Source: Zootoca vivipara (taxonomy: Eukaryota). Taken from it: DNA of 64,000 nucleotides. Below the pieces are notes generated by a model. The model ran no database searches, was not told the DNA's origin, and was given only the letters and a program-made list of their open reading frames with translations. Every line of letters starts with the position of its first letter. The first letter of the stretch is position 1. The translations under genes and the position numbers were made by a program. Below, piece after piece: positions 31,001 through 37,871 of this stretch. The DNA lies in contig NC_083288.1 in the NCBI RefSeq assembly GCF_963506605.1, positions 43,090,001 to 43,154,000 on the forward strand, given 5' to 3'.

Positions 31001-31452
31001 CAAATAATAATGATAATGTATTGTGTCTTTATCTGCTTTGGTGTGTATTAAGAGGTCTTACCTGCCCTGAGATGAGCAATGGTGAGAAACAAGATCCAGA
31101 ACTTCTTCAATAAAGAAAAGCACTAATAAAATATTTGGTCAAACCATTTGTAACTGTGAAGAAACCACTGAAATATAAAACTCCCAAAATAGAATTGATG
31201 GTCATTATAGAACATTTCTGCTTTTATTTATTGACAGGGACAACCCCTTTCTGTGTGTAATGACAATTGCCATCCAGGGTATAGTAAGATAAAGTTGGAA
31301 GGGAAGCCATTTTGCTGCTATCATTGCCTCCCATGTCCTGAAGGGAAGATTTCAAATCAGAATGGTAAGAAATGCAAAGTAGAGCATTTGTTCAAATTTC
31401 AAATATAATGTGCTCGGATAATGACTTTTTAGCTTCCCCTCCCCCGTCTCTG

Positions 31453-31498
<46 letters not shown>

Positions 31499-35017: not shown

Positions 35018-35078
<61 letters not shown>

Positions 35079-37871
35079 ATTTCTATACCACCCTATACCT
35101 GAAGTTCTGTTCATGAACAGCCCTGGAACCTTCTAAATCTACTCTGGATTTTCCCTCCGCCCTCCAGAGCAGGTAAGAGTTAGGTGTGGAGATAACACAG
35201 AGAGAGAAGAGATCCCTGCATTTCATTGTACAAAGCAGTACCAGTGCATCTATTTTGTTTCTGACTGCTCATTGGAATTAATCCAAAATATTGATGTATA
35301 TATCAGGTTCCACAGGCATTGATTGATTGTTGGTTTTTGTTTTGTTTTTACTATTTCGAAGGTGACATAACCATTGCTGATGTAACCAGTGACGGCATTG
35401 TATCTTTTTGTAAAAATTTCTGTAAGGGCTTTATGTGGGTGGTTTATTTATTTTTTTAAAAAAGTTGTTAACTTTTAAAAACTTTTTAAAAAAAATTAAA
35501 ACAAATTTGATTAGGAAAATTCAACAATATCAACAATATTACAATATATTACAAACATATTACAAGCCTGACCACACTCATACATACATTCTTAATTGCA
35601 AATACAATACTGACTGCGCACATCTACATACTCATTTTCCCCACCACCACCCGATGTGATAGACTTCCAATCACATCAGCTCTAATTTATTTTATATTCC
35701 ATTACTTTCTCTTGCATACTGTTATCTCTATACACTTCTTATCCTTCTTTACTATAAATACTAACTAATACTAACTAATATTTCATATATCATTTTCATC
35801 TTCCTGTTTCTCTATATGTTAATTACAGAACTTGTCTTAATCTGATATAAATTCCAGCTTTTCAATATACTTTTAAAAATATTCTTTAAACATCTTCCAT
35901 TCTTTCTCCGTTTTTTTCTTTTGAAACCCTTCCAATATTCCCCATTAATTTGACCAAATTATAATATTCTATTAATTTTGCTAGCCACTCTGTTTTCATT
36001 GGTATCTGGACGCTTTTCCAATTTTTCGCTCACAGAAGCCTCACAGCCACTGTTGCATATAGATACAATACCTTGTCTGCTTCCTTTAAATTTACTGGCA
36101 CTATTCCCAATAGAAATCCTTCTGGCATCTTCTTGAATATTCATTTAAACATTTCATTATAAATGAAATCCCAACACTGTTTAATATTAGCACAGTCCAT
36201 AGCTGCCAAGTTTTCCCTTGTCTCGCGAGGAAGCCTATTCAGCATAAGGGAAAATCCCTTGAAAAAAGGGATAACTTGGCAGCTATGGCACAGTCTCACC
36301 AAATATGAATCATGATTCAAAAATGTTTTTAAATGTAGTACTATATTTTGTTGTAAGGCATCTGAAAGCTTAAGGGGAAGGGTTGGTAATGAAGTAAAAT
36401 AAAACCAATCAAATATAATATAGAACATGATTTCAGAGAAATATGGTGGAATTCATTATAACCAATCTGATGACTGAGGGCATTCCCGGATCACTGATAA
36501 TTTGAGGTTTTTGGCAGACATAATACTGGGTAACGAGATCATCCAAAACAGAGGGCATCTGATCTGCATGCAGAAGGTCCCAGATTCAATCCCAGCATCA
36601 TCTATCTGAAATGCTGGAGAGCCATGGACAGTCTGCAGAGAGAATTATGAGCCAGAGAGATCAATAGTCTAATCTGCTATAAGGTAGATTCCTGTGTTCC
36701 TGTGTTATGAGAAGATTTCCCCAATATAAATACACTTATTTACTATAAGGAAGATGCTTCTTCTACCAAATGAAACGGCTTCCTACAAGAGAGAACAGTG
36801 ACTGTTTCAAAGAAACTCCACTGAATGTAATTTGTTGAAGAAAAAAGCTTGGCTTTTACATTCATTTGAGCTTCCTTGATTCAGGACTTCATAGTACTAA
36901 CGCTTAAATACTGCAGTGCACTATGTATTGCTGTTTTTATTTTAAAGAAAACCATGTTTTCCTTTCCAGACATGGATGCGTGTTTTCAATGTCCAGAAGA
37001 CCAGTATCCAAATGACCAACATGATTCCTGCATTCCGAAATATACAAGTTACTTATCTTATGAAGAACCTTTGGGATTATGTTTCGCTGTTTCTGCTCTT
37101 TCCTTATCTGTTCTCACGTTTTTGGTACTCAGAGTCTTCATTAAGTACTGGCATACTCCCATAGTCAAAGCCAACAACAGGGACCTCACCTTCGCACTCC
37201 TAATATCTCTCCTGCTCTCTTTCCTTTGCGCTCTGCTCTTCATTGGCAAGCCTAATAAGGTGACCTGTCTCCTTCGACAAATTACTTTTGGTCTCATCTT
37301 CTCAGTGGCGGTTTCTTGCATATTGGCCAAAACCACCATAGTGATTTTAGCTTTCATGGCTACCAGGCCAGAGTCCAGTATCAGGAGATGGGTGGGGAAT
37401 AAATTGGCCATTACCATTGTTCTTTCCTGCTCCCTAATTCAGACCAGTCTTTGTTGTGTGTGGCTGGCAACATCACCCCCATTCCCAGATCTAGACATGC
37501 ACACAATGACTGAAGAGATTGTGCTTGTATGCAATGAAGGTTCAGTCACCATGTTCTACTGTGTCCTGGGCTTCATGGGCTTCCAGGCCACAATCTGCTT
37601 CATTGTGGCTTTCCTGGCTAGGAGATTGCCTGACACGTTCAATGAAGCCAAGTTCATCGCCTTCAGCATGTTGGTCTTCTGTAGCGTATGGTTGACCTTT
37701 ATCCCAACCTACCTGAGCACAAAAGGGAAATACATGGTGGCTGTGGAGATCTTCTCCATTTTGACTTCTGGTGCTGGGTTACTGCTCTGCATCTTTTCCC
37801 CCAAATGCTACATTATTCTGCTTAGGCCTGACTTGAACAAAAGAAAACAGCTGATAAAGAGGCCAAACTGA
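26530..37871 (+). CDS. V2R: V2R paralog C, 871 aa via exon 6b; contains an internal duplication
   Basis: join(26530-26747,28176-28467,28809-29657,30282-30509,31238-31364 or 34803-34929,36970-37871) = 2616 nt, in frame. Confidence 0.82.
28176..28467 (+). CDS. V2R: V2R-C exon 2
   Basis: 292 nt, AG/GT. Confidence 0.93.
28809..29657 (+). CDS. V2R: V2R-C exon 3
   Basis: 849 nt (6-nt in-frame deletion versus B and D). Confidence 0.93.
30282..30509 (+). CDS. V2R: V2R-C exon 4
   Basis: 228 nt, AG/GT. Confidence 0.93.
31238..31364 (+). CDS. V2R: V2R-C exon 5a
   Basis: 127 nt, open. Confidence 0.9.
32618..32707. mobile_element. 90-bp hAT-type MITE, C-specific; duplicate at 36198-36287
   Basis: TIR CATAGCTGCCAAGTT/AACTTGGCAGCTATG; 8-bp TSD GCACAGTC; empty site in A and B. 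Confidence 0.92.
33390..34078 (+). CDS. V2R: V2R-C exon 6a, truncated after TM5, with novel C-terminus [11 protein letters not shown]
   Basis: Intact acceptor; matches exon 6b up to ...FLAR (34042), then junction sequence and TAG. Confidence 0.75.
34803..34929 (+). CDS. V2R: V2R-C exon 5b (duplicate)
   Basis: Matches exon 5a, splice sites intact. Confidence 0.88.
36970..37871 (+). CDS. V2R: V2R-C exon 6b (complete 7TM)
   Basis: 902 nt, open. Confidence 0.93.

Follow-up and report, generated by a model that had tools for sequence, protein, structure and literature searches.

An internal tandem duplication in a V2R gene

We analysed a 64,000-nucleotide (nt) stretch of the Zootoca vivipara genome (contig NC_083288.1, positions 43,090,001 to 43,154,000; G000:C13:43090001-43154000), hereafter the window, in which reading of open reading frames (ORFs) and exons revealed five genes of a tandem array, A to E. 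Whole-genome searches covered 1.44 Gb in 48 contigs. Our subject is gene C, part of which is present twice. [quoted passage not shown] The gene lies on the plus strand and has a six-exon layout, with exon sizes and phases as in paralogs B and D. Exon 1 (26530..26747) encodes a signal-peptide-like N terminus and ends in a phase-2 donor, its length and donor being alike in paralogs A, B and D, and exon 2 (28176..28467; 292 nt, as in B and D) keeps the frame open from exon 1. Exon 3 (28809..29657), an internal exon of 849 nt, encodes the Venus flytrap ligand-binding domain (PF01094, E 2.9e-20 in a Pfam profile search), and exon 4 (30282..30509) ends at the native donor (CAG/GTAGGT at 30510).

Beyond exon 4 the gene continues in the order 5a, 6a, 5b, 6b, as the first-pass annotation of this DNA had proposed; all acceptors are AG and are the same in both copies. 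Exons 5a (31238..31364) and 5b (34803..34929) are identical 127-nt exons for the nine-cysteine domain (PF07562, E 7.8e-16 on 5a and 5b). Exon 6b (36970..37871) is a terminal exon with a complete class C seven-transmembrane (7-TM) domain, spanning positions 1-251 of the 251 in PF00003 (7tm_3), and the first AATAAA downstream of it lies at 38118. Its closest solved relative in a structure-database comparison was the calcium-sensing receptor (CaSR; E 1.5e-78). Exon 6a (33390..34074; 685 nt) encodes TM1-TM5 followed by the joint of the duplication and covers only positions 1-189 of 7tm_3, so that receptors ending in it would have five helices (5-TM) and not the full 7-TM domain of class C. The break likewise falls just past TM5 by hydropathy and by alignment with CaSR, as first annotated. 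The nearest named Atlas clusters (0.95-0.97) are called 'vomeronasal type-2 receptor 26(-like)', although such cluster names are automatic. We infer that gene C belongs to the squamate non-C V2Rs from its multi-copy array and from the lone family-C member described in anole and corn snake (PMC3590772).

Self-comparison of the window showed that the repeated unit extends beyond exons 5 and 6. Copy 1 (30506..34043) comprises the last 4 nt of exon 4, intron 4, exon 5, intron 5 and the first 654 nt of exon 6, and copy 2 (34071..37623) follows it head to tail. Across 3538 aligned bases the copies differ by one substitution (30602/34167) and by a 15-nt length difference in a (TGT)n repeat, which makes them 99.97% identical outside this one microsatellite, a similarity far above chance. 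Such near-identity suggests that the 3.5-kb duplication is very recent. The first-pass annotation was thus right that a duplication exists, although it placed the start at 31238 rather than 30506 and left the 27 nt between the copies unexplained.

A templated, inverted insert at the joint

The insert between the two copies (34044..34070) consists of 25 templated nt and 2 further nt. Joint bases 34043-34068 are identical, at 26 of 26 positions, to the minus strand of gene C intron 5 read from 31748 down to 31723 (source stretch 31723..31748, of which a second copy lies in copy 2 of the unit). The match is to the gene C allele, as paralogs A and B differ from the joint at this stretch. Read from left to right, the joint therefore runs from exon 6 into 25 nt of reversed intron 5, 2 extra bases and the end of exon 4, with 1 nt of overlap at the first switch and the 2 extra nt at the second. 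We had also considered that the insert was patched together from sequence flanking the breakpoints; the longest match there was 7 nt, a length equalled in 26% of 2000 shuffles, and this candidate gave way to intron 5 with its 26-nt match. Template switching typically leaves a short insert of this kind, templated and inverted, as in fork stalling and template switching/microhomology-mediated break-induced replication (FoSTeS/MMBIR) or polymerase-theta joining, and the 27-nt joint is likely to be such a scar. With an overlap of only 1 nt at the first switch, more than one joining pathway would fit. The joint occurred once in the genome among the 40 scored matches listed.

Two copies that differ as alleles might, by one single-nucleotide polymorphism and one microsatellite, could also result from a false duplication in the assembly, made from two haplotypes or from a chimeric read. 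We therefore looked for the joint in contigs of 4 (X1, X2, X5 and X8) of 24 public sequencing runs, bearing in mind that such contigs reveal presence and not absence. A 523-nt contig of run X2 (33578-34100) crosses the insert with 0 differences, although only 30 letters follow the insert on its right-hand side, where the threshold is 31. In run X1, contigs stop at precisely 34043 and others begin at precisely 34071, the pattern expected of branch points. Both runs may derive from the animal that was assembled, in which case they argue against assembler error yet provide no second carrier. An assembly error is nevertheless unlikely, because a haplotype mis-join would not create an inverted templated insert and because the independently built X2 contig matches the joint letter for letter. 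There is also no N or gap inside gene C or near the joint. On this evidence the duplicated DNA is very likely real. X5 (S4) and X8 (S3) do not display the joint, and each has a contig that passes without a break from 34071 into a normal exon 4; exon-6 contigs of X5 carry the A/B letters at 33519, 33628 and 33921. These contigs give only a hint that the X5 and X8 samples are without the duplication, which would make it a polymorphism. No RNA data set was indexed as containing 33300-35010, a negative that speaks neither for nor against expression.

Splice paths through the duplicated exons

The duplication gave exon 6a the native exon-6 acceptor at its start and, at its end, a copy of the exon-4 donor, which brought along 4 bases of exon 4 and all 728 nt of intron 4. 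This copied donor (GTAGGT, 34075..34080) is in phase 2, as had been noted. Counted as simple matches to the 9-nt donor consensus, it scores 8/9, the best value in the gene and tied with the native exon-4 copy, whereas the other donors score 6 or 7. Only two other donor-like sites were found in or just past 6a, at 33467 and 34121, both of them 6/9 and in phase 1. With the gene's best donor copied at its end, 6a would most probably be joined to 5b. Nor should its length be prohibitive, given that the gene already holds the 849-nt exon 3 as an internal exon.

We translated all eight paths that lead from exon 4 to exon 6b. Only two of them, 4-5a-6b and 4-5b-6b, encode the 871-amino-acid (aa) receptor, as originally annotated, and both omit two exons; no single-exon skip brings back the full protein. 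Translation also bore out the frameshifts in 6a-5b and 6a-6b. The path that includes every exon encodes 817 aa and ends at a premature stop in 5b, 72 nt upstream of the final exon junction. This exceeds the 50-55-nt limit for nonsense-mediated decay (NMD), so the all-exon message is a predicted NMD target. In a stop-codon scan of human LMNA, NMD was reported to be maximal about 71 nt upstream of the last junction (PMC12776119, a preprint, cited from its available text), a result that we extrapolate in carrying it to a reptile, and the junction rule itself is described as imperfect. The new tail of the 817-aa frame contained no sixth helix, its best 19-residue hydropathy being 0.67. Skipping 6a alone is out of frame and yields 578 aa, with the stop 104 nt upstream of the last junction, and skipping 5a yields 593 aa. 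By contrast, skipping 5b alone yields 814 aa with a stop inside the last exon, which places this 5-TM product outside the NMD rule, an escape overlooked when the 6a-6b frameshift was first noted.

A five-helix product would also be reached without splicing at the end of 6a. Read-through of its donor terminates at the TAG at 34076-34078 and gives the 800-aa form without TM6-7 that the first-pass annotation described; it carries 11 new terminal residues, the final 9 of which are mostly encoded by the 27-nt joint insert. The copied intron 4 holds potential polyadenylation signals downstream, namely two AATAAA hexamers on the plus strand (34674..34695, at 34674 and 34690) that are copies of native intron-4 hexamers (31109 and 31125). 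The hexamers at 34139, 34674 and 34690 lie 65, 600 and 616 nt past the 6a donor, and the same spacing is found in native intron 4. If the intron-4 hexamers were used natively they would cut the normal gene short, which counts against the 800-aa form. Apart from these duplicated signals, nothing in 6a itself marks it as a terminal exon.

The annotation had gone on to suggest a nascent alternative-splicing cassette offering two terminal options. The sequence does not support this suggestion: 6a lacks terminal features of its own, no single skip rescues the frame, the joint is unique and neighbouring genes are similarly damaged. The exons do not resemble a cassette of mutually exclusive exons either, since 5a equals 5b, 6a is partial and carries a phase-2 donor, and the two-exon skips yield identical proteins. 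In mouse vomeronasal receptor (VR) genes, several isoforms are reported to be common, with few genes encoding more than one plausible protein (PMC4154679, available text).

A probable loss-of-function allele

We consider it likely, from the sequence evidence above, that gene C is a young loss-of-function allele of a redundant V2R paralog undergoing birth-and-death turnover. During DNA copying or repair, synthesis would have broken off in exon 6 past TM5, switched to intron 5 to copy 25 nt in reverse, and then restarted where exon 4 ends. Having an intact acceptor and the best donor, 6a would then be treated as internal and spliced to 5b, and the resulting 817-aa frame, with its early stop, would send the message to NMD. 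The gene would thus be knocked out or knocked down, because splicing would include the added exons out of frame and the message would be expected to decay. With an intact paralog B that is 97.7% identical, this loss would be tolerated. Full-length message (by double skipping) and 5-TM message (by skipping of 5b or intronic polyadenylation) may still leak through in small amounts. The first-pass annotation had listed disablement by splicing trapped at 6a as its other option, and this now appears the likelier of its two, although by a different route, in which 6a acts as an internal exon, is spliced to 5b and leads to a premature stop. Ordinary turnover of the V2R family, and not a new two-way switch, is the most likely account.

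Several points weigh against this conclusion. The choice of splice sites is predicted from DNA, and the donor ranking comes from a match count and not from a trained model. At 685 nt, and with its origin as a terminal exon, 6a may frequently be skipped. The gene C frame is otherwise intact, with no second lesion, which fits youth and also fits continued function. Finally, most genes of the surveyed clusters (see below) have a normal exon order, so that damage there is recurrent and not the norm.

Frequent skipping would favour a leaky allele, in which the cell mostly omits the 5-6a block, the 871-aa receptor is still made, NMD clears the remainder and the duplication is nearly neutral. Both double-skip paths encode exactly this protein, 6a is large and natively terminal, and NMD would be expected to enrich in-frame messages among stable RNA. 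However, two exons with intact, constitutively used sites would have to drop out together, loss of 6a by itself is out of frame, and the gene already tolerates a longer internal exon. We regard a leaky allele as unlikely.

A nascent decoy, the leading idea of the first-pass annotation, seems to us improbable; in this reading a stable 5-TM receptor of 800 or 814 aa would pair with a partner, for example the family-C V2R, and damp its activity. Both forms would evade the NMD rule and retain the whole ectodomain with TM1-5, and the AATAAA signals at 34674 and 34690 are available. There are precedents: the 5-TM receptor GHS-R1b is held in the endoplasmic reticulum and acts as a dominant negative (PMC3757321), and the truncated mGlu3-delta4 interacts with mGlu3 (PMC5714154), according to the available text of these reports. 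In snake, the family-C V2R is described as present in most vomeronasal neurons and co-expressed with non-C V2Rs (PMC3590772). Against this, the 800-aa form must outcompete the gene's best donor, and U1 bound at a donor is reported to shield against nearby intronic cleavage (PMC5499120; PMC4227790; available text); native intron 4 also has these hexamers, equally far from its donor. The two non-C V2Rs tested in snake were mutually exclusive (PMC3590772), so a decoy's main partner would be family C, and this in no neurons but those choosing gene C. The copies, one substitution apart over 3538 bases, are too young for any refinement, the joint has no second occurrence in the genome, and V2R heterodimerization itself is only proposed in the snake study, as far as its available text goes (PMC3590772).

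A bolder version, to which we give very little credence, holds that a newborn, probably segregating allele produces an NMD-proof five-helix receptor, its ligand-binding domain whole, that would trap the family-C V2R and silence the neurons choosing it, as a natural dominant negative. If true, it would offer a ready test of C/non-C V2R heterodimers and of whether a broken V2R blocks re-choice. The gene C duplication would gain in importance only if a stable 5-TM protein were found, heterodimerization of V2Rs with family C being still a proposal in the text cited above (PMC3590772). Weakest of all is the assembly artefact, which the inverted intron-5 copy in the joint and the X2 contig make highly improbable.

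If gene C is indeed a loss-of-function allele, it adds one further broken receptor copy to a fast-turning family. It also carries a warning, in that gene predictors would likely stitch exons 4, 5 and 6b together and count the gene as intact.

Comparison with known systems

Gene C resembles the expanded squamate non-C V2Rs in having six exons, encoding a class C receptor and lying in an extensive tandem array (PMC3590772). Broken copies that end before the end of TM7 are reported to be common among snake vomeronasal organ (VNO) transcripts (Brykczynska et al. 2013, PMC3590772), and 39 putative V2R pseudogene contigs were described from the corn snake VNO (PMC3590772). The available text of that study reports stop codons and no large indels in those contigs, whereas gene C has a multi-exon duplication with a templated joint. 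In mice, 18.2% of the VR genes analysed were truncated and a further 14.3% were frame-shifted in at least one strain (PMC3460788). These truncations, frameshifts, deletions and duplications parallel gene C as structural and frame damage within a species in receptor clusters; gene C differs in having a breakpoint located to the exact base, within the terminal 7-TM exon. The mouse study, in its available text, also warns that splicing may rescue some alleles (PMC3460788).

Out-of-frame multi-exon duplications in human CDKL5 (PMC11544015) and in a DMD model (PMC8103086) are reported, in the available text, to cause a frame shift and a premature stop, as predicted for gene C. Unlike those genes, gene C is a redundant receptor, and its duplication takes in part of the last exon, so that a hybrid exon arises whose donor comes from exon 4. 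Template-switch tandem duplications with templated insertions (PMC7025897; PMC5120786) share the head-to-tail copies and an insert copied from nearby, inverted in gene C; the gene C event differs from them in being germ-line, or at least whole-animal, and in lying in a reptile receptor cluster. Like GHS-R1b (PMC3757321), the 800- and 814-aa forms would be without TM6-7. However, GHS-R1b, a class A receptor, and mGlu3-delta4 (PMC5714154) are described as established expressed isoforms, whereas the gene C forms are predicted and arise beside a default path that would be degraded. We found no published 5-TM isoform of a V2R arising from an intragenic duplication in searches of a partial literature collection on V2Rs, truncated receptors and duplications.

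Paralogs and the surrounding cluster

Paralogs A, B and C form, by their sequences, a very young triplet. Paralog A (791..8651, plus strand) is without exons 2-4; its exon 1 would splice out of frame to exon 5, with a stop after 90 aa. The end of intron 1 of gene A matches intron 1 of gene D (40934-41220) and then joins a B-like intron 4. Paralog B (11376..23410, plus strand) has an intact 873-aa frame in which 851 of 871 aligned residues are identical to gene C, and paralog D is also intact (788 of 871 residues). Between B (11376-23410) and C (26530-37871), there are 20 differing aligned residues and a 2-residue gap, and 17 of the 20 are extracellular (positions 5-571), as expected for diverging ligand-binding domains.

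We also surveyed 1.264 Mb in four stretches, which were picked around gene-related genome matches and are therefore non-random. The survey recovered 76 exon-2 matches, 78 near-full exon-6 matches and 66 clean 2-3-4-5-6 runs, the front half of gene C included, exon order being blind to small lesions. A second young intragenic V2R duplication lies 233 kb away (L040-L041; assembly only), where G000:C13:43356192-43358066 is repeated at 43358413-43360287 with 1 mismatch in 1875 bases. Between its copies is a 349-nt templated insert from 43354507-43354855, and the unit repeats the end of exon 3 with exons 4 and 5 (228 + 127 nt), out of frame. The presence of a second templated duplication suggests that this kind of accident recurs in the cluster. 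If gene C is a loss-of-function allele, the two events, 233 kb apart, would provide a base-resolved case of template-switch duplications helping to kill young V2R paralogs. An automated screen for tandem copies less than 300 nt apart found gene C as the only exon-bearing pair; the second duplication, with its 349-nt insert, escaped this screen and came to light from the exon order.

Other irregularities were seen among related genes. Stray 3' pieces of exon 6 (the TM7 end or residues 119-294) lie just past V2R genes at G000:C13 ~43238500, 43251600 and 43279500 and at C2:4359263 and C2:4394963. The C2 pair 4394073/4394962 is 88% identical and represents an older partial duplication. Two related V2R genes have extra exon-5-like sequence between exons 3 and 4 (G000:C2:4352779-4352895 and C2:4390807-4390923). 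At G000:C13 ~43459000-43470200 (minus strand), a V2R exon 6 is split by ~7 kb, and exons 5 and 4, but no matches to exons 3-1, precede the next gene. Within the window, an ORF in intron 1 of gene C (27056-27379) has the look of a retroelement reverse transcriptase fragment, and masked N stretches (10618-10955, 25756-26113 and 39786-39993) precede genes B, C and D, each at a corresponding position just upstream.

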